Part shown: piece by piece, positions 26,953 to 35,637 of the stretch
How positions within the stretch are numbered: the stretch's first letter is position 1
Layout: each line of letters starts with the position of its first letter
Source of the DNA: an uncultured Eubacteriales bacterium
GTDB taxonomy: Bacteria; Bacillota_I; Bacilli_A; RF39; UBA660
NCBI GenBank assembly: GCA_963545265.1
Contig: CAUUHY010000002.1
Location: forward strand, 12,953-76,952
Length of the DNA stretch: 64,000 bases
Direction: 5' to 3'
The notes under the pieces: generated by a model
Database searches by the model: none
Told to the model about the DNA's origin: nothing
The model's input: only the letters and a program-made list of their open reading frames with translations
Position numbers and translations under genes: made by a program

Positions 26953-28323
26953 TTATTTTTTCTTTTTCTTTTTGTGCTTCTTATTACTACTTTTTTTGTT
27001 TTTTGTTTTACTTTTTTCTCTTGTTTGATTATGTAGTTTTGTATGAATTTTATTAGATTTTATTTTTGCTTTTTTAAAAAATTTAATATTACTAATTCTA
27101 TTGTAATATATAAATATTACAGCAATTAAAACTATTAGTATTAAAATTAATATATAATTTATAATATTTTCTATTATAAATAATTTATTATAATTATCTA
27201 TACTTTTTTCACTTACTATAGTAATAGAGTTTTGGTTGATTATTAATTTTATAATCTTTTTTATATTTTTGATATTTAAATAGCTAGTCTTTAAGTTATT
27301 ATTCATTTTATATAGTTTGTTGTTAGTAGATATATAAAATTCATTATTTTCTTTTAAAACATATGGTTCGATATCAGAACTAATATATTTTTTAGCCATT
27401 AATGTAAAATTTTTATATTTTGATATTTCTAAACTTCGTTTATCTTTTAAATATGTAAAAATAATTATTTCTTTATTTTTTTCATTTACATTTATTACTT
27501 TTCCTATTAGATTTTTATCTTTGTCTTTTTGAAATAATATTCTTTCTTTATTAGAATATTGTGTAAGTATTCCACCTTGATTATTTTCACCAAGTAAAAA
27601 ATAACTATTTTCTTTTAATGATAATATTTTATTAAATTCTTTATATCCCAAAGACATAGTAACTACTTTGTTTAAAGATAAATCGTATTTTATCATTAAA
27701 GATTCTTTTGTTATAAAATTTTCACCAACCATTAAAAAAGCATCTTTATTTTGTAAAAAATCATTAAATATTGATGAATATTCCTCAACTAATTTTTGAA
27801 CTTCTTCACCACTATTTTTATTTATTTTTAATATAAAAGCAGGACTTCCTCCAATTATAATTAATTCACTATCATTAATAGACTTTATATTAGTAGCTGT
27901 ACCAGAAAAACTTTTTGTATATTCAATTTTTCCATTTTTTGAAATTTTAGTAACTGAAAAAAAGTTATTATCTGTATTTTCTAATACATAATAAAATTCA
28001 TTATCAATATATATTAAAGATTTAGGCATTTCATATATAGATTTTTTATTTGATTTTATACTTTTAGGAGATAAATTTAACTTAAAAACTTCTTTATTAT
28101 CAGTATACTTTATTAATATATTTTTATAATTTCTAATATATGTTTCATTTTCATAAGTTTCATTAACAATTTCAGATTTTAACACTAAAATATTATTGCT
28201 TTTTTTTATAACATCTATATTAATTTCGTTATTTAACGTTTTAATATTCAAAGCAAAACTACTAAAGTTAGCTAAAAATATTGTCATAAATAAAATAACT
28301 GATATTTTAATTGTTTTTTTCAT
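26953..28323 (-). CDS. exported protein with C-terminal membrane anchor and poly-lysine tail, function unknown
   Basis: N-terminal signal peptide, ~370-aa repetitive beta-rich ectodomain, TM helix IINYILILILIVLIAVIFIYY and a basic tail ending KKHKKKKKK. Confidence 0.5.
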   Translation of the reverse strand: MKKTIKISVILFMTIFLANFSSFALNIKTLNNEINIDVIKKSNNILVLKSEIVNETYENETYIRNYKNILIKYTDNKEVFKLNLSPKSIKSNKKSIYEMPKSLIYIDNEFYYVLENTDNNFFSVTKISKNGKIEYTKSFSGTATNIKSINDSELIIIGGSPAFILKINKNSGEEVQKLVEEYSSIFNDFLQNKDAFLMVGENFITKESLMIKYDLSLNKVVTMSLGYKEFNKILSLKENSYFLLGENNQGGILTQYSNKERILFQKDKDKNLIGKVINVNEKNKEIIIFTYLKDKRSLEISKYKNFTLMAKKYISSDIEPYVLKENNEFYISTNNKLYKMNNNLKTSYLNIKNIKKIIKLIINQNSITIVSEKSIDNYNKLFIIENIINYILILILIVLIAVIFIYYNRISNIKFFKKAKIKSNKIHTKLHNQTREKSKTKNKKSSNKKHKKKKKK

Positions 28324-28343: not shown

Positions 28344-29735
28344 TTAGCTTAAATTTTTTCTTACTTCTTCTTCATCATTCATTACTATTGGACCAGTAAT
28401 ACATTTATGACTTTTTTCGTTTCCTTTTCCTAAAATAAATATAATATCATCTTTTTTAGCAATTTTCATAGCTTTTTTTATAGCTTTCTTCCTATCTACT
28501 TCAATTATATAATGATCATTTTTAAAACCAGTTATTATTTCATTAATTATATCTAGTGGATCTTCATTTGCTGGGTCATCAAAACATAGAATTGATATAT
28601 CAGCTTTTTCACTAAGTAATTCCCCTACTATTGGTCTTTTTCCTTTATCTCTACTACCTGCCATACCTGTAACTACTATTTTTCTATTTACTTTTAAATT
28701 ATCTGCAAGACTTAAAATATTTTTAATAGCATTAACTGTATGAGCATAATCTATTACTATTTTATAATCTTGTCCCATATCAATAAAATTAACTCTACCA
28801 GGAATAGATATATTCTTTATATTATCTTTATACTCAATATTTAATTTTTCACATAATAATATTGCTGCTGATAAATTATATACATTAAAACTTCCAATAA
28901 GTGGTGAATTTATATTAATTCTCTTATCATCATAAATAATATCAAACTTAGTAGAATGATCAAAATATTCTATGTTTTTAAAACTTAAATCCGCATCTTT
29001 TCCATAACTATAATTAATTTTATTAATCTTCTTAAAATCTTCATATAATTTATCATCTTTATTTAAAATAGCAATTCCATCTTCTTTTAAATGATGAAAT
29101 ATTTCTTTTTTACATTCAATATAATTTTCTATTGTTTTATGTACATTTAAATGATCTCTTGTAACATTAGTTAAAATAAGAGCATCAAAATATAAATTTC
29201 TAAGTCTTTTCCTAAATGATGCTTCACTTGATACTTCCATAACTATATATTTACATCCAGCATCTTTTAATTCTTTAAAATATTTATACATTAAATCAGC
29301 ATCAGGTGTTGTGTTATTTGTTTCTTTATGAAATTTACTACAAGAATATCCATTTGTACCAATATATCCACATATATCATTACCTATTAATGTAGATAAA
29401 ATCATTGCCGTACTTGTTTTTCCATCAGTTCCAGTAACTCCAAATAATTTAAAGTCCCCTTCATGATAATCATATAACTTTCTAGCAATTTTAGGCATTT
29501 CTTCATCACAATCATCTACTTTTATAACTAATACATCATCTCTTTTAATGTCTTTACTTACAACTATAACTGATGCACCATTATTTACTGCTTCATCAAT
29601 AAATTCATGTCTGTCAAAATTAACTCCACTAACACATACAAATATATCTTTAGGTTTAACTGCTTTTGAATTTATTTTTATATCCTTTACTTCTATATCA
29701 CTATTTATATTAAATATATCTTTTACTGTTTTCAT
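28344..29735 (-). CDS. murE: UDP-N-acetylmuramoyl-L-alanyl-D-glutamate--diamino acid ligase (MurE)
   Basis: Mur ligase P-loop GVTGTDGKTST, a DSR-equivalent N-domain and C-terminal GKGNE. Its specificity motif is DDPA rather than DNPR. Confidence 0.9.
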   Translation of the reverse strand: MKTVKDIFNINSDIEVKDIKINSKAVKPKDIFVCVSGVNFDRHEFIDEAVNNGASVIVVSKDIKRDDVLVIKVDDCDEEMPKIARKLYDYHEGDFKLFGVTGTDGKTSTAMILSTLIGNDICGYIGTNGYSCSKFHKETNNTTPDADLMYKYFKELKDAGCKYIVMEVSSEASFRKRLRNLYFDALILTNVTRDHLNVHKTIENYIECKKEIFHHLKEDGIAILNKDDKLYEDFKKINKINYSYGKDADLSFKNIEYFDHSTKFDIIYDDKRININSPLIGSFNVYNLSAAILLCEKLNIEYKDNIKNISIPGRVNFIDMGQDYKIVIDYAHTVNAIKNILSLADNLKVNRKIVVTGMAGSRDKGKRPIVGELLSEKADISILCFDDPANEDPLDIINEIITGFKNDHYIIEVDRKKAIKKAMKIAKKDDIIFILGKGNEKSHKCITGPIVMNDEEEVRKNLS

Positions 29736-30613
29736 AAGTTCTTTATTATTACCTCCAACTCTGCTTCGTAACTTTTACCAGTTTTTAATTTTATTTCTAT
29801 ATCTGCTAATTTATTTAATAAATTAATTAATTCTTCTTGTTCATATAAATAATCATTTTCAATTATCTTATCAAATCTATATTTATTTATTCCAAGTTCT
29901 TTTAATATTTCACTATTACTTAAATTTTGTTCTTTATATAATTTATATTTTAATAAGATTCTAAACTGTTCTGCTATTTGATAAATTATATGTAAAAGTT
30001 CCATATCTTTATTATTTTTTAAATCATCTAATATTTCTAATGCTTTATCAGTATTCTTTTTACCTATCATATCAAGTAAAGTAAATATATTGATATTTAA
30101 ATCTTTAACTGCTATTTTCTTTATATCATCAATAGTTATTTTACTATTATCATTTTTATAATCTTTAATATTTTTTAAAGCATTTATAACCTTATAATTT
30201 TCATTTCCAACATAATCTATTAAAAATCTTTTTGTACTATTATCTATATTATAATTTTCATCTATATATGAATATATATTTATTTTTTCATCCATTACTT
30301 TACTATATTTTTTTAAACTAGTATCTTCTTTATCTGCTAGTATCAATAATATATTATTAGGATTAGGATTTTCTAAATACTTAATAAATTTGGCAGAATT
30401 TTTTAAATCTTTAGTTTTAAAATTATAAAGAATTACAAGTTTATTAGGAACTAAAAAATTATATGAATCTAATACAACAATTAAATCTTCAATACTTCTT
30501 GTATTATAATCAAACTTTTCTATTTCATAATCTTTATATTTATCTTTTAATATATCTAAATTATAATCTATTACTATTTTATCTTCACTTACTAAAGAAT
30601 ATACATAATCCAT
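29732..30613 (-). CDS. holA: DNA polymerase III delta subunit
   Basis: Size, helical C-terminal domain and N-terminal pattern (..SLVSEDKIVID.., LDSYNFLVPNKLVILYN) resemble HolA. The assignment rests on weak similarity only. Confidence 0.6.
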   Translation of the reverse strand: MDYVYSLVSEDKIVIDYNLDILKDKYKDYEIEKFDYNTRSIEDLIVVLDSYNFLVPNKLVILYNFKTKDLKNSAKFIKYLENPNPNNILLILADKEDTSLKKYSKVMDEKINIYSYIDENYNIDNSTKRFLIDYVGNENYKVINALKNIKDYKNDNSKITIDDIKKIAVKDLNINIFTLLDMIGKKNTDKALEILDDLKNNKDMELLHIIYQIAEQFRILLKYKLYKEQNLSNSEILKELGINKYRFDKIIENDYLYEQEELINLLNKLADIEIKLKTGKSYEAELEVIIKNL

Positions 30614-30651
30614 TATCTCACCACTTCCATTATAACAAAAAAATGATATAT

Positions 30652-31047
30652 TTATATATCATTTTTATATTTTCTATCTTTTTTATAATTATGATTTATT
30701 TCATATTCTCTTAAAAGTATTAATCCCAAAATCCAATAACCTAATTCAATTATTTCAATATATTTTTCATAACTTACATCTTCTGGAAATACAATAACAT
30801 TATATCGAATTTTTTGTAATTCTAAATGATTTATATATATTAAAGATTTATATTTTATATAAATTTTTAACCATTTTCTTATGTAATTTAATTTTTCTTT
30901 TATTTTTTTATCAATATCATTTTCATTTAAAGAACTATCTAATAACAAAATATATGTAGCATGATATAAAAGTCTAGCAAAACAATATTCAATATTTTCT
31001 TCAGTAGGATTACTAGAAGTATAAACTTTGTTTTTATCAATTTTCAT
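30652..31047 (-). CDS. small helical protein, paralogue A of a three-member family (unknown function)
   Basis: Shares NIEYCF.RLLY...YL and NYI(K/R)KWLKIYIK..SL.YI(N/D)H blocks with the ORFs at 31700-32089 and 32099-32440. Confidence 0.55.
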   Translation of the reverse strand: MKIDKNKVYTSSNPTEENIEYCFARLLYHATYILLLDSSLNENDIDKKIKEKLNYIRKWLKIYIKYKSLIYINHLELQKIRYNVIVFPEDVSYEKYIEIIELGYWILGLILLREYEINHNYKKDRKYKNDI

Positions 31048-31143
31048 AGTTTATATTTACTAAACCATCCTTCTTTTATTTCCCTTTGATTTTTGAAAAA
31101 ATAATTTATACGTAATGTGCCACTAATATCAAAAGAGACTACC

Positions 31144-31671
31144 TTAATCATCGTATTCCTCTTTAGCTAGGCGAATAACTTCAGATATAAATTCATTTTT
31201 TCCTTGAGTATATTTAGGTCTTTCGTCAGCATATTTTTTTGCTAAATCTTGCTTTAAATCACAATATTTTTTAATATATTTTGGGTGTTCTATTAAATAT
31301 TTTTTAAAATAAATTTGATTATAATATGTATTACTTTTTGGATAAGTAAAATGTATATAATGACTTCTTGCTTTTTCAGGTCCTTTTGCAAAGAAAAATC
31401 TATCACTAACTCCTTGTGGTCCTCTATTTTCATAATCATAATCTTTTAATAATTCTTCAATTGCGTTTATTTTATTAAGATCATCAATTACAATTAAAAT
31501 ATCTATTACTGGTTTAGCCATTAATCCTTCAATAGATGTACTACCAATATGATGAATTTCTATAATTCTATCACCTAATACTTTTTTTAGTAGTTCTTCC
31601 TCCTTTTTATAATCTTCTTTCCATTTTTCACTATAAGTTTCTAATTCAACAATACCTCTTTGTAATGCCAT
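31144..31671 (-). CDS. grpB: GrpB family (UPF0157) nucleotidyltransferase-fold protein
   Basis: HIGSTSIEGLMAKPVIDILIV (NTase G[ST]..D.D core), RFFF.KG, HYIHF and ERPKYT.GK are characteristic of GrpB. Confidence 0.85.
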   Translation of the reverse strand: MALQRGIVELETYSEKWKEDYKKEEELLKKVLGDRIIEIHHIGSTSIEGLMAKPVIDILIVIDDLNKINAIEELLKDYDYENRGPQGVSDRFFFAKGPEKARSHYIHFTYPKSNTYYNQIYFKKYLIEHPKYIKKYCDLKQDLAKKYADERPKYTQGKNEFISEVIRLAKEEYDD

Positions 31672-31699
31672 AATTTTTTCCTCCTTTTTTATAAACAGA

Positions 31700-32089
31700 T
31701 TATATCTCTTTGATATTATCGATTTCTGTTTTTCTAAGGCATATTATAGCCCAAATCCAATCTATTGTAATACGTATTTTTACTGGATAACTATCTTCTT
31801 TTGTATAATATAATTCTTGTGTATTATTATATACTTTAATTAATTCTTTATGATCTATATATACTAAAGTTCTTTGTTTAATATATATTTTTAACCATTT
31901 TTTTACGTAATTTAGTATTATTTTAATATCTTGTTTTAAATAACTATATTCTTCATCTAAAATTAAATATTCTAAATAAAATATTGCTTGAGAAAAAGCA
32001 TATTCTATATTTTGGTGATTAACTAGCTTAATATTAAAATTTTTCTCATAGAATATTTGACTTTTAAGTTTATGATTATTATTTTTCAT
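31700..32089 (-). CDS. small helical protein, paralogue B
   Basis: NIEYAFSQAIFYLEYL and NYVKKWLKIYIKQRTLVYIDH blocks. Confidence 0.55.
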   Translation of the reverse strand: MKNNNHKLKSQIFYEKNFNIKLVNHQNIEYAFSQAIFYLEYLILDEEYSYLKQDIKIILNYVKKWLKIYIKQRTLVYIDHKELIKVYNNTQELYYTKEDSYPVKIRITIDWIWAIICLRKTEIDNIKEI

Positions 32090-32098
32090 ATTTTTTTC

Positions 32099-32440
32099 CT
32101 AGTTATTTTTCAATATAATTAATTCTTTTACACAATTATATAATTCTAATATTTCTACACATTTTTTGTTTATTTTCTTAGTTTCAAATAAATCATCTAT
32201 AATCTTTAAAACTTTATCTATATCGCTATTATCAATATCTTTTAAAGATTTAAATTTTATATAAGTTTTCAACCATTTTTTTATATAAATTAAAATAATA
32301 GATATTTCATAATTTATATGTTTATATTCTAGATTAATATTTAAATATTCTGTATAATACAAAAGTCTAGTAAAACAATATTCTATTTTATTTTCTTTTT
32401 CATTAAAAATATTAAAATTTGAATCTTTTTTCATACGCAA
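32099..32440 (-). CDS. small helical protein, paralogue C
   Basis: KIEYCFTRLLYYTEYL and IYIKKWLKTYIKFKSL blocks. It starts 13 nt after the alaS stop. Confidence 0.55.
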   Translation of the reverse strand: MRMKKDSNFNIFNEKENKIEYCFTRLLYYTEYLNINLEYKHINYEISIILIYIKKWLKTYIKFKSLKDIDNSDIDKVLKIIDDLFETKKINKKCVEILELYNCVKELIILKNN

Positions 32441-32453
32441 TTCTTCTTTTTGA

Positions 32454-35108
32454 TTAATTATTTATATCTTCTATTAATTTTTCTTCTAATTGTTTTATTA
32501 CTTCTTCAGTATTTATATCTTCTTTAGTACCACCTGTTGCAAGTAAATTATTTCCTCCACCATTTCCATTTGTAAGTGAAGAGAAGTATTTTATATAATC
32601 TACTGCAGATAGCTTGTTAGTTGATTTAGCAACATATGCTAAAGAATCTTCATTTTTAATTAAAGTAAATATAAATATTTCTTTTTCTTTATTAGAAATA
32701 TTATCTAAAAGTTCTTTTGCAGTTTTAACATCTATTTCTTTAACTCCAAATATTAAGTATTTAGTATTATTTACTTCTTTTATATTAGATAAATATTTAT
32801 CAGTTTGATCAAGTACTTTTTCTTTAACTTTTTCTTTATACTCTTTTTCTAATTCAATAACATCATTTTTTAAAGATTCTGTTATATTTTTATAATATAC
32901 TATAGATTCATAAGAATTTAATTCTTTTTCTTCAAAATATAACTTAAAATCTAAATTAATATTTTTACTATTAGCACTATCTATAATATTTCTAGATTTA
33001 TTAATTATCTTATCTATTTCTGTTAAATAATTACTTACTTTTTCTTTTACTTTATCTTTAATAAATCCTTCGTGAGTTGCTTCTATTCTATAAATATTAC
33101 TTCCTTTTGATTCAATAGATAAAATAGCGCATTTTCCTATTAAAGAAGTGTTTTCTACGTGACATCCACCACATAGTTCAATAGACTCATTAAAACTTAC
33201 TACTCTTACTATATCTGAATATTTTTCACCAAATAAGTGCATTGAATTAAGTTTAAATGCTTCTTCTTTAGGTAAATATTTAATATCTCTTTTGATACTT
33301 TCTTTAATTCTTTCATTTACTCTTTTTTCTACTTCGATGATTTCTTCATCTCCAATTTTCTTAATATAAGTAAAATCAAATCTTAAATAATCTTCATCTA
33401 CATAACTACCTGCTTGTTTAACATCTCCTAAAACATTTTGTAATTCTTTTTGAAGTAAATGTGTTAATGTATGATTCTTTGTAACATTTTCTCTTCTTGT
33501 TTTATTAATTTTTTGTATTAATTTATCTCCAACATTAATATTTCCTTCAATATTGTCTAATATAAGTAAGTTTTGTTTAAATGGAGCTTTTTTACAATCT
33601 ATTACATCTGCTTTAAAGTTAGAATTTTCTACTGTTCCAGTGTCTCCTACTTGACCACCAGACTCAGCATAAAAACATGTTTCTTTTAAGATTATGCTAT
33701 TATCAAATACTCCTATTACTTCACTTTCAAGTTCATAAGTATCTTCTATAAACTTACTTTCTTCTTGAAAGTTTAATAATTGATCATTTTGAATATTCAT
33801 AGATGTAGATTGATTAAAGTTTCTTGATTTTTCTCTATGTTCTTTGATAAGTTCATTTACTTTATCTATATCTGTAGTAATATTTTCTTCATCTAAATAT
33901 TCTAAAGTAAAATCTATTGGAAAACCATAAGTATCATATAGTCTATATACATCTAAAGCATCGATATTCTTATCAGAATTATTTGCTTGTTTTATTAATT
34001 CTTCTAACTTTTTAAATCCTGTTTCTAAAGTATCTTTGAATAATTTTTCTTCTCTATATATACTTTCTTGAATATTAGGTAAATTTTCTTCAAGTTCAGG
34101 ATAACTTTCTTTCATTACATCAACCACTTCATTAACTATTCTATATAAAAATGGCTCATTAATTCCTAATTTTTTACCCATTCTAACACTTCTTCTAAGT
34201 AATCTTCTTAATACATAATCTCTTCCAGTATTACCAAAATTAGCTTTATCAGAAAGCGCCATAGTAATACATCTAATATGATCTGCTATTACTTTAAATG
34301 GTGTTGAATTATCATATTTTTTATTTGCTATTTTTTCTATTTCTTTAATAATTGGTTGAAATAAGTCTGTATCAAATATTGAATTAACATTTTGAAACAT
34401 TAAACACCATCTCTCAAGTCCTGCTCCAGTATCTATATTTTTAGATGGTAATTCTTCATAATCTTCTCTTTTTACACCTTTTTTAGCATTATATTGAGAA
34501 AAAACATTATTCCATATTTCTACAAATCTTTCTTGTTCTTCATCTTTAAAGAAAGCTTCTTTTGCTTCTTCTCCTCCAAACTCTTCTCCTCTATCAAAGA
34601 ATATTTCAGTATCAGGTCCACTTGGTCCTTCTCCTATTTCCCAGTAATTTCCATCAAGTAAAACTAAATGCGATTCATCTATTCCAAGAGACATCCATTT
34701 ATTTTTAGTTTCAGTATCGTGAGTATAAACAGTCATATAAAGTTTTTCTTTTGGTATATCCATATAATCTATTAAAAATTCATAAGCAAATTCTATAGCT
34801 TCATTCTTAAAATAATCTCCAATTGAGAAATTTCCCATCATTTCAAAGAAAGTTAAATGTCTTTTAGTAACTCCTACATTTTCTATATCATTAGTTCTAA
34901 TACATTTTTGAATATTTACTATTCTTCTAGATTCTGGAATTTTTGATCCATCTAAATATTTTTTAAGTGGTGTAACTCCCGCATTATTAAATAGTAAACT
35001 ATCATCATCAAGTGGAACAAGAGACGCACTAGGCATCTTTAAATGTCCCTTACTTTCAAAAAAATTATACCATTTTTCTCTTATTTCATTGTGTGTTAAG
35101 TAATTCAT
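32454..35108 (-). CDS. alaS: alanine--tRNA ligase
   Basis: FFESKGH..PSASLVP..D.SLLFNNAGV, FEMMGNFSIGDYFK, editing-domain HTLTHLL and CGGCHV, and a C-terminal DHHA1-like GGG region. 884 aa. Confidence 0.97.
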   Translation of the reverse strand: MNYLTHNEIREKWYNFFESKGHLKMPSASLVPLDDDSLLFNNAGVTPLKKYLDGSKIPESRRIVNIQKCIRTNDIENVGVTKRHLTFFEMMGNFSIGDYFKNEAIEFAYEFLIDYMDIPKEKLYMTVYTHDTETKNKWMSLGIDESHLVLLDGNYWEIGEGPSGPDTEIFFDRGEEFGGEEAKEAFFKDEEQERFVEIWNNVFSQYNAKKGVKREDYEELPSKNIDTGAGLERWCLMFQNVNSIFDTDLFQPIIKEIEKIANKKYDNSTPFKVIADHIRCITMALSDKANFGNTGRDYVLRRLLRRSVRMGKKLGINEPFLYRIVNEVVDVMKESYPELEENLPNIQESIYREEKLFKDTLETGFKKLEELIKQANNSDKNIDALDVYRLYDTYGFPIDFTLEYLDEENITTDIDKVNELIKEHREKSRNFNQSTSMNIQNDQLLNFQEESKFIEDTYELESEVIGVFDNSIILKETCFYAESGGQVGDTGTVENSNFKADVIDCKKAPFKQNLLILDNIEGNINVGDKLIQKINKTRRENVTKNHTLTHLLQKELQNVLGDVKQAGSYVDEDYLRFDFTYIKKIGDEEIIEVEKRVNERIKESIKRDIKYLPKEEAFKLNSMHLFGEKYSDIVRVVSFNESIELCGGCHVENTSLIGKCAILSIESKGSNIYRIEATHEGFIKDKVKEKVSNYLTEIDKIINKSRNIIDSANSKNINLDFKLYFEEKELNSYESIVYYKNITESLKNDVIELEKEYKEKVKEKVLDQTDKYLSNIKEVNNTKYLIFGVKEIDVKTAKELLDNISNKEKEIFIFTLIKNEDSLAYVAKSTNKLSAVDYIKYFSSLTNGNGGGNNLLATGGTKEDINTEEVIKQLEEKLIEDINN

Positions 35109-35637
35109 TATAATGCTCCTTTATTATATTAATAGTATCTTCTTTAAGTTTTTCTAATGTAGTATTTTCTATTACATAATCAAATTTATCATAATTATCA
35201 AGTTCTACTTCAGTTCTATGTTTTTTTTGTTCATCACTAAATCCATTATCAAAATCTTTTCTAATTATTTTTAATTTCAATGGTTTTGTCACTTTAGAGA
35301 TTTTTTCTATCTCTAATATAAGCCTTATATCTGTAATGATTAAAAAATCAAAAAAGTATGATAATACATCTATATCTTCTATCATTCTATTTACAAAAAA
35401 TTCTTCTTTACCAAGTTTTTCTCTAATTATTTCTGTACCTAGTTTTTGTAATAAATCTCTAGGTTTTGTTTCTTCTCTTCCGTCCCATCCAAAATAATAT
35501 TTTGCATATTCTTTTAATGGTCTTGAGATTTGACTTCTTGCTACTTTATAACCTTTTTCTTTTAAATACTCTTCTATTATATTTCCTGTAGTATCTTTAC
35601 CATGTCTTCCTTTTCCTGCAATTAAAATAACTTCCAT
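35086..35637 (-). CDS. P-loop kinase, deoxynucleoside monophosphate kinase-like family
   Basis: Walker A AGKGRHGKDT, LQKLGTEIIRE and ITDIRLILEIE resemble the dNMP-kinase family pattern (GSGKDT ... lGte..R ... itDvRf.nE). It overlaps both neighbouring genes. Confidence 0.55.
   Translation of the reverse strand: MEVILIAGKGRHGKDTTGNIIEEYLKEKGYKVARSQISRPLKEYAKYYFGWDGREETKPRDLLQKLGTEIIREKLGKEEFFVNRMIEDIDVLSYFFDFLIITDIRLILEIEKISKVTKPLKLKIIRKDFDNGFSDEQKKHRTEVELDNYDKFDYVIENTTLEKLKEDTINIIKEHYNELLNTQ

Follow-up and report, generated by a model that had tools for sequence, protein, structure and literature searches.

Three small helical-protein genes around a GrpB gene between alaS and holA are probably orphaned partners of another, cysteine-rich protein

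Why should a gene of the GrpB family lie among three divergent copies of a small helical protein, between the housekeeping genes alaS and holA? The question is raised by a stretch of 64,000 nucleotides (the window) from contig CAUUHY010000002.1 of an uncultured bacterium, in which alaS is followed on the minus strand by copies C and B of the small gene, then by GrpB, copy A and holA. A first-pass annotation of this DNA proposed that the small proteins could be partners of GrpB. Comparison with related strains and with metagenomes points to a different answer: the three copies are probably the partner genes of another protein, orphaned when a fragment carrying GrpB took its place. In the following the family of A, B and C is called SHP, a name given here to this small four-helix-bundle family (type 1 of the partner types described below), and X210 is our name for a cysteine-rich protein of about 200-210 amino acids.

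The genes in question are copy C (32099-32440, 113 amino acids when read from a TTG, and 111 amino acids from the ATG at 32434, the form which agrees with P0004), copy B (31700-32089, 129 amino acids), GrpB (31144-31671, 175 amino acids) and copy A (30652-31047, 131 amino acids), all on the minus strand. The positions, the strand and the sizes of 113, 129 and 131 amino acids reported for the small genes before were reproduced by our open reading frame (ORF) calls. A near-identical strain, the species representative in the genome collection (L014), has copies of A, B and holA which are 98.5%, 94.5% and 95% identical to those of the window. There the order is C-B-X210-A-holA instead of C-B-GrpB-A-holA, and the X210 in the position of GrpB is an unrelated protein of 213 amino acids. 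The identity between the two strains runs through the spacer and ribosome-binding site behind copy B (TCTGTTTATAAAAAAGGAGGA, 31679-31699, minus strand) up to GGAGGA (...AAGGAGGA); directly after it lies the left breakpoint, where one strain continues with GrpB and the other with X210. On the right the identity returns before copy A at AAATAAAAGAAGG... (AAATAAAAGAAGGATGGTTTAG.AAATATAAACT). The right breakpoint is the 5' edge of a conserved leader of copy A (AAATAAAAGAAGGATGGTTTAGTAAATATAAACT, 31048-31081, minus strand), which comes after GrpB and a short stub of a HAD hydrolase gene in the window and forms the end of X210 in L014. The breakpoints of the swap coincide with ribosome-binding sites. 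No X210 gene was found in the 64-kb window, and A, B and C are therefore orphans within this visible part of the genome.

Studying further strains of the species group reveals the same interval in several other states, with alaS flanking the variable region in every related locus compared. Copy B stands directly upstream of X210 not only in L014 but also in the sister genomes L001-L004. In the L001 type copy A is deleted behind B-X210, with only its last 15 nt or so left, and in another arrangement a deletion fuses B to X210. Other strains carry an N-terminally truncated chimera of C and B which is followed by GrpB, with copy A either intact or frameshifted (L005, L007). This chimera, the result of recombination between C and B in sister strains (P0016, L015/L005), and a second one of C and A (P0015) are both joined at the KKWLK block of the small proteins. 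We are quite confident that the gap between alaS and holA is a recombination hot spot and that the swap has the history and structure described here.

At the end of the L014 contig, just upstream of the array (positions 1-600), lies an N-terminal fragment of an ISNCY-family transposase (116 amino acids, minus strand, NF033594, E=2e-19) together with an additional piece of copy C. An insertion sequence thus interrupts the alaS side in that strain.

The protein which took the place of X210 is a clear GrpB: it scores 151 bits with the PF04229 profile, where the cut-off is 25.5 (E=4e-44), and its match extends over positions 2-157 of the 159 in the profile. Its translation contains the core motif of the nucleotidyltransferase fold, hG[GS] followed by an acidic strand (HIGSTSIEGLMAKPVIDILIV), as the first-pass annotation had noticed. 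The closest homologues are 77-84% identical and abundant in metagenome-assembled genomes (MAGs) of Bacilli and Mycoplasmatota. They lie inside XFP-PHP-PHP-GrpB-HAD-UvrD blocks, in which the HAD gene overlaps the GrpB stop by 8 nt and no small helical gene is present. A HAD-IA-type hydrolase consistently follows this GrpB subfamily (L025 5001-6162, L027 5001-6210, L029 363-1521). One of these loci, L029, comes from the same species group as the window: its GrpB is 97.7% identical to that of the window and belongs to an intact block of PHP, GrpB, HAD (212 amino acids) and helicase (682 amino acids) genes. Positions 338-1050 of this native locus are 98.5% identical at the nucleotide level to the version in the island of L005 (8290-9000). 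The idea that GrpB is foreign cargo, brought in by horizontal transfer, was rejected, since related genomes, and L029 too, have this GrpB-HAD block as a native locus.

The trace of the HAD gene is still present in the window. A remnant of 35 codons (31044-31151, minus strand) encodes MIKVVSFDISGTL..., that is the N-terminus and motif I of a HAD hydrolase, and matches the N-termini of the intact proteins of L025, L027 and L029 (MIKVVSFDIGGTL...). The remnant overlaps both neighbouring genes, with its ATG across the stop of GrpB (ATGATTAA) and its TGA across the start of copy A (ATGA). Strains L005 and L006 have a longer, decayed remnant with in-frame stops, and in the window strain an internal deletion restored one continuous small ORF. 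Compared with the blocks of low-G+C Bacilli and Mycoplasmatota MAGs, the window thus keeps the overlapping start of the HAD gene but only 35 codons of it, and the pair sits between SHP genes and not after PHP genes. The distances between holA, A, GrpB, B, C and alaS are 38, 96, 28, 9 and 13 nt. The range of 9-96 nt given earlier is correct in length, but the 96 nt between GrpB and A are not empty, since they hold the HAD remnant. Because the stub overlaps both the GrpB stop and the start of A, translation of copy A could be coupled to that of GrpB.

In L029 the native GrpB gene is preceded by TTTATAAAAAGAGGAGGA, which is similar to the spacer behind copy B, TCTGTTTATAAAAAAGGAGGA, and this likeness makes the two spacers a plausible crossover site. 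A further junction was seen in the same locus (L029 3767-4020), where X210 joins the helicase end of the native block, and the junction falls exactly on the start codon of X210, which is lost. This second rearrangement has its breakpoint at the same ribosome-binding site and start position, and may represent a large inversion or deletion, or a chimeric assembly.

With which protein, then, are the small proteins associated elsewhere? The gene following SHP is homologous, namely an X210, in three unrelated contexts: between alaS and holA (L001, L014), between rpsG and fusA (L017) and on the contig of a spore-former (L013), where X210 is split into two ORFs. A metagenome scan started from X210 alone gave at least 167 relatives, mostly from human gut assemblies, and 80 loci were kept. 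In 50 of these 80 a match to the SHP profile lies immediately upstream of X210 on the same strand. For eight of the remaining 30 no sequence upstream is available, and several more show a different small helical ORF in this place. Not one of the 50 loci with SHP has a GrpB gene within 4 kb. Of 83 intact X210 genes, 48 are preceded by a partner of type 1, SHP, seven by one of type 3 and two each by types 2 and 4; the rest have no upstream sequence (8) or none or another partner (16). A small helical ORF is found directly upstream in at least 59 of the 83, mostly overlapping, and the stop of the partner usually overlaps the ATG of X210 (mode -11 nt). The type 2 partner is probably a remote homologue of SHP, judging from profile comparison (hhalign probability 71%, E=4e-5) and from its fusion to SHP in one protein (P0029), and for type 3 no sequence relationship to SHP was found.

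The two members of the module differ in their rate of change. Across 41 X210 clusters the mean identity is 42% for SHP, counting alignable pairs, versus 59% for X210, and the SHPs are unalignable in 165 of 296 pairs although the corresponding X210s are about 56% identical. When the N-terminal domains of X210 are compared, the identity is 50% between proteins with the same partner type and 35% between those with different types; for the C-terminal domains the values are 64% and 63%. We take the fact that the N-domain, and not the C-domain, tracks the partner type as evidence that the partner recognises the N-domain. From these sequence comparisons we consider SHP a probable binding partner of X210.

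X210 begins with a variable region of about 70-95 residues, with conserved Tyr and His residues, and continues with a linker rich in Ser, Gly and Thr. The C-terminal domain is conserved (C-Y-L-T-T-A-C-M...F-D-D-N-C-Y-E-L..L-R-x-F-R-D...Y-Y..A-P...C...) and contains four invariant cysteines. By reading of the sequences the protein has no signal peptide or membrane segment, and no LXG, RHS, PAAR or other trafficking domain was found. The C-terminal half resembles CFI-box-CTERM (NCBIfam NF041770), with which it shares the motif series C-[YF]-[IL]-T-T-A...LR.FRD...YY..AP; it matches the model at E=5e-7 to 5e-6, and a relative on a Lysinibacillus plasmid is annotated as such. However, the scores of 26.3-29.6 bits are below the curated cut-off of 40, and the four invariant cysteines and an extra helical tail set X210 apart. 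X210 is thus probably a distant relative of the CFI-box-CTERM domain and not a curated member. Useful literature on the CFI-box domain was not found. Split X210 genes occur among the loci, and the large gene of the module is often inactivated. In loci with serine recombinases (L071, L038, L091, L108, L092) a conserved ORF of 130 amino acids, for which no family match was found, follows X210 and may be either a third part of the module or one more orphan partner.

The relationship of A, B and C themselves, recognised already in the first-pass annotation, is well supported. Their pairwise identity is 34-37%, and their alignment has 22 invariant columns, including IEY.F and KWLK.YIK. This similarity is not due to chance, because a profile built from the three copies recovers true relatives at E values down to 1e-45. 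The family is also absent from Pfam, NCBIfam, PADLOC and PHROGs, where A, B and C gave only chance-level matches, which agrees with the suspicion that it might be undescribed. The three-copy profile finds 24 protein clusters among 5.8 billion proteins, an exhaustive HMMER scan with it gives 17 representatives among 1.8 billion proteins, and the wider SHP profile finds 41 protein clusters. SHP is a real, narrow and undescribed family. Its distant members are 20-35% identical and keep the motifs F-N-x-x-N-P-T-x-x-N-I-E-Y-x-F and KKW-x-x-I-Y as well as S-L-x-x-I-[ND]-x-x-E-L and W...L-R-K-x-[QE]-I. Within the window a search with the family profile finds just three SHP genes, A, B and C (copy C with E=1.6e-34). 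In the DNA alignment no stretch is better conserved than the KKWLKIYIK block, and the chimeras P0015 and P0016 cross over in it. A role of the block as a nucleic-acid (DNA or RNA) element, or an origin by gene conversion, was considered and rejected: the motif is conserved at the protein level in distant members too, and is therefore a protein feature.

The small proteins had been called helical, and AlphaFold2 models support this. For copy A the model (pLDDT 84.8, pTM 0.80) has helices at residues 16-35, 40-66, 74-82 and 93-120, and a distant member of 126 amino acids (pLDDT 89.2, pTM 0.82) agrees with it, so that the predicted fold is an up-down four-helix bundle. Foldseek comparison of the two models with the PDB, and of one of them with BFVD, found only generic four-helix bundles (ROP, PA2107, Avd, Csp) with E values of 0.37 and above, and the SHP profile had no match below E=0.085 among the PDB sequences. 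Avd and the 23S rRNA intervening-sequence proteins (PF05635) are likewise up-down four-helix bundles of about 120 amino acids, and match SHP weakly in Foldseek (TM 0.43-0.56). However, the E values are only 2.9-3.2, SHP has no Pfam match (E<=1) or NCBIfam match, and its genes lack a reverse transcriptase or rRNA context; the likeness is at the level of a generic bundle. Two small partner proteins can also be joined: P0029 (241 amino acids) is a natural fusion of a type 2 and a type 1 partner, and in L014 C and B form one ORF of 247 amino acids (757-1500). From these fusions one may suspect that the small proteins function as dimers or tandem bundles.

The modules of SHP and X210 are found in diverse genomic settings. 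Large serine recombinases adjoin the module in at least seven clusters, cell-wall hydrolases (M23, LysM, VanY) are frequent in its surroundings, and three proviral contigs of IMG/VR carry it. The recombinase and cell-wall-hydrolase settings look like accessory positions of prophages. Other neighbours are Cas9, Fic, IS200, RecG, a MiaB-like enzyme, DivIC, holA and rpsG/fusA, and some loci have two modules or extra orphan partners. Searching for X210 gave one weak match in the GenBank phage collection and two among the PLSDB plasmids, covering about half of the query (the C-terminal half), so that these two collections are practically devoid of it. In MAGs labelled "Bacilli bacterium" from the gut (L010, L017-L022, L106-L107) the module recurs between rpsG and fusA of the str operon, an unusual place for an insertion, in the middle of a core ribosomal operon. 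This gap can contain SHP alone, SHP with a type 4 partner and X210, or a type 3 partner with X210. Distant SHP members, between rpsG and fusA or elsewhere, are found without GrpB, and one of the stand-alone proteins of the rpsG-fusA gap (HJJ20589.1) occurs on at least 1000 contigs.

Taking these results together, the locus would be explained as follows. The gap between alaS and holA is a hot spot whose resident element would be the two-gene module of SHP and X210 with extra copies of SHP. In the window strain X210 seems to have given way to GrpB and the 35-codon HAD stub, copied as one fragment from the PHP-GrpB-HAD-helicase locus of the same lineage, and the exchange would have used the short similarity between two ribosome-binding-site spacers. 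This would have left A, B and C as orphaned partner genes and GrpB as functionally unrelated cargo. SHP would bind the N-terminal domain of its cognate X210 and control or neutralise it, in the manner of an antitoxin, an immunity protein or a chaperone; the module would be a mobile accessory, often prophage-borne, with a logic like that of toxin-antitoxin systems, and orphan SHP copies could persist as leftover or cross-protective genes. We regard this explanation as a whole, with the swap, the orphaned SHP copies and the pairing with X210, as the probable one.

What the module does is a more speculative matter. An overlapping, fast-changing small gene with swappable partners, together with orphans and chimeras, inactivation of the large gene and the link to prophages, forms a pattern which resembles toxin-antitoxin systems, and by this analogy a toxin-antitoxin-like function is our leading, still tentative, guess. 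As in type II systems the genes are co-directional and usually overlapping with the small one first; the tight pair is kept across contexts (the window itself is without X210); the small partner changes more quickly, and one conserved large family is served by several small partners unrelated to each other, a "mix and match" arrangement; and modules are scattered between housekeeping genes and prophage-like regions, accompanied by orphan or chimeric small genes. Differences exist as well. SHP and X210 have no homology to known toxins or antitoxins, SHP has no HTH, RHH or AbrB domain, and in X210, the putative toxin, it is the variable N-domain and not the conserved one which goes along with the partner type. 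As a still wider picture one may imagine that SHP and X210 form undescribed mobile modules, often prophage-borne, of human gut and oral Bacilli and Clostridia with reduced genomes, similar to toxin-antitoxin or phage-exclusion systems, in which SHP holds a Cys4/His effector in check via its N-domain and orphan arrays provide anti-addiction or cross-immunity against incoming X210; this is a possibility that we put forward with reserve.

Polymorphic toxins, to which an array of orphan immunity genes would point, were also considered. In such toxins the N-terminal region serves trafficking and is conserved, the C-terminal toxin domain varies, and the immunity gene lies downstream. In X210 this polarity is reversed, with a variable N-terminus and a conserved C-terminus, the small partner is located upstream and there is no trafficking domain; we therefore reject this model. 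The resemblance to orphan immunity genes mentioned in the first-pass annotation holds in so far as the copies are orphan partners, and does not hold for immunity proteins of polymorphic toxins.

Among the other explanations the proposed partnership with GrpB has to be weighed first. A, B and C would then be triplicated substrate-binding, regulatory or immunity partners of GrpB in the style of MNT-HEPN pairs (HI0073/HI0074) or of the KNTase C-domain, and indeed the window and several sister strains encode a minimal nucleotidyltransferase-fold protein right beside small helical proteins and in the same direction, and the SHP fold is helical as is that of HEPN. We now find this explanation very improbable. 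X210 occupies the slot of GrpB in L014 and L001, and the kept neighbour of GrpB is the HAD gene, the stub of which is present even in the window. The survey of neighbourhoods which had been suggested to settle the matter finds HAD beside the GrpB homologues and no SHP, and GrpB is missing within 4 kb of SHP in all 50 SHP-bearing metagenome loci, so that co-occurrence of the two is confined to this strain group and is not seen in the other genomes compared. Lack of co-occurrence elsewhere is one of the outcomes which the first-pass annotation itself had named as refuting its proposal. The GrpB family is very large, with hundreds of close homologues, compared to the 17-41 protein clusters of SHP. 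Neither of the two models matched HEPN or KNTase_C in Foldseek (best E 0.37), and a conserved Rx4-6H motif is lacking: Rx5H is present only in copy A (LREYEINH) and absent from B, C and the wider SHP family. A different view would give SHP an autonomous cellular role, for instance as a factor associated with translation or replication and encoded in housekeeping operons, and would regard the adjacency to X210 as secondary. It is favoured by the SHP genes which stand alone between rpsG and fusA in several species of gut Bacilli, where dN/dS is 0.11-0.19, similar to rpsG and also in species without an adjacent X210, by the many contigs with HJJ20589.1 and by the position of the window array 13 nt after alaS. 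Because of the strong constraint on the str-operon copies we keep an autonomous role among the candidates, but hold it to be unlikely: most SHP members were found directly upstream of X210 and overlapping it, the unrelated types 3 and 4 take the same position, including the rpsG-fusA slot (L106/L107, L017), truncated, chimeric and frameshifted copies occur in sister strains which keep the flanking genes, and the distribution of SHP is very narrow.

The copies of the window strain might also be functionless relics which drift towards loss after removal of their partner. In the window lineage dN/dS is 0.4-0.7 for A, B and C compared to 0.09-0.15 for alaS and murE, based on small counts, and the frameshift in A, the C/B chimera with its truncated N-terminus and the deletion fusions of sister strains would fit such a decay. 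On the other hand both the window and L014 have all three ORFs intact, the copies still have their 34-37% identity and the conserved motifs of the family, and the dN/dS values come from few substitutions, with holA also reaching 0.37-0.55 in the closest comparisons. Decay of this kind appears rather doubtful to us. For copy B, again from small counts, dN/dS is 0.66-0.73 and dS is 0.10 compared to 0.38-0.57 in the flanking genes, and this low dS suggests a recent exchange of the gene between lineages. To return to the pairing of SHP with X210, some observations weigh against it as well. The strong constraint on the stand-alone SHP suggests a role without a neighbouring X210, the co-variation of the N-domain with the partner type is only partly controlled for phylogeny, and searches of the SHP types and X210 against Pfam, NCBIfam, PADLOC and PHROGs found no toxin domain, no DNA-binding domain of an antitoxin and no defence domain.

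The island had been described as part of a housekeeping transcription unit. The upstream edge of the variable region is alaS (32454-35108, minus strand, 884 amino acids), whose orthologue carries the domains tRNA-synt_2c, tRNA_SAD and DHHA1, and the downstream edge is holA for the delta subunit of DNA polymerase III (29732-30613, minus strand), called as an ORF and matching DNA_pol3_delta and DNA_pol3_delta_C. Between copy A and holA an A/U-rich, terminator-like hairpin (30634-30671, minus strand) lies across the stop codon of A, with a U run behind it. The stem has 12 bp of A/U (-10.8 kcal/mol, z=-2.87), and the sequence is unchanged in L001, where the remainder of copy A is deleted. Judging from this hairpin and the U run, the island may end a transcript which begins at or before alaS, and is not necessarily embedded in a single alaS-holA transcription unit. 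A promoter-like motif, TGTTATAAT, at 30629-30637 overlaps the 3' side of the hairpin; as it is only about 15 nt from the ATG of holA, its role as a promoter is doubtful. A consensus scan at 22% G+C, uninformative at this composition, found fewer promoter-like sites than in shuffled sequences and no G+C-rich terminators.

The region between alaS and holA shows no break in composition relative to its flanks, the G+C content being 15-24% throughout. TGA is used as stop codon by 10 of the 51 long ORFs of the window, which shows that the code is the standard bacterial one. The DNA comes from an uncultured, human-associated Firmicute with about 22% G+C, labelled "Clostridiales/Eubacteriales bacterium", in which murE is still present. 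Contigs of 825-829 kb in the species group suggest a host genome of less than 1 Mb. Two more genes of the window may be mentioned. A protein of 456 amino acids (26953-28323, minus strand), for which no confident family match was found, has a single hydrophobic segment towards the C-terminus and a lysine-rich tail whose last letters are KKKKKK, and it is kept between murE and lon in all related loci. A protein of 183 amino acids similar to deoxynucleotide monophosphate kinases (35086-35637, minus strand; PF21448, E=1e-10) overlaps the start of alaS by 23 nt and keeps this position in all sister genomes; PF21448 is a family best known from phages.

For GrpB, on the function of which no useful literature was found, the consequence is that the wrong link to a helical "partner" is kept out of annotation. 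Its conserved neighbour, the HAD hydrolase, is the better lead to its function and points to a combination of a nucleotidyltransferase-fold enzyme with a phosphatase. The small genes in turn belong to an uncharacterised, conserved gene pair, which consists of a four-helix-bundle protein and a cysteine-rich protein related to the unstudied CFI-box domain. In its population behaviour, with swaps of partner type, orphan arrays, chimeras and repeated insertion at rpsG-fusA and alaS-holA, this pair acts like cognate binding pairs do. If it should turn out to be toxin-antitoxin-like or to serve in defence, it would represent a new family of such systems in poorly studied, uncultured members of the human microbiota with small genomes.

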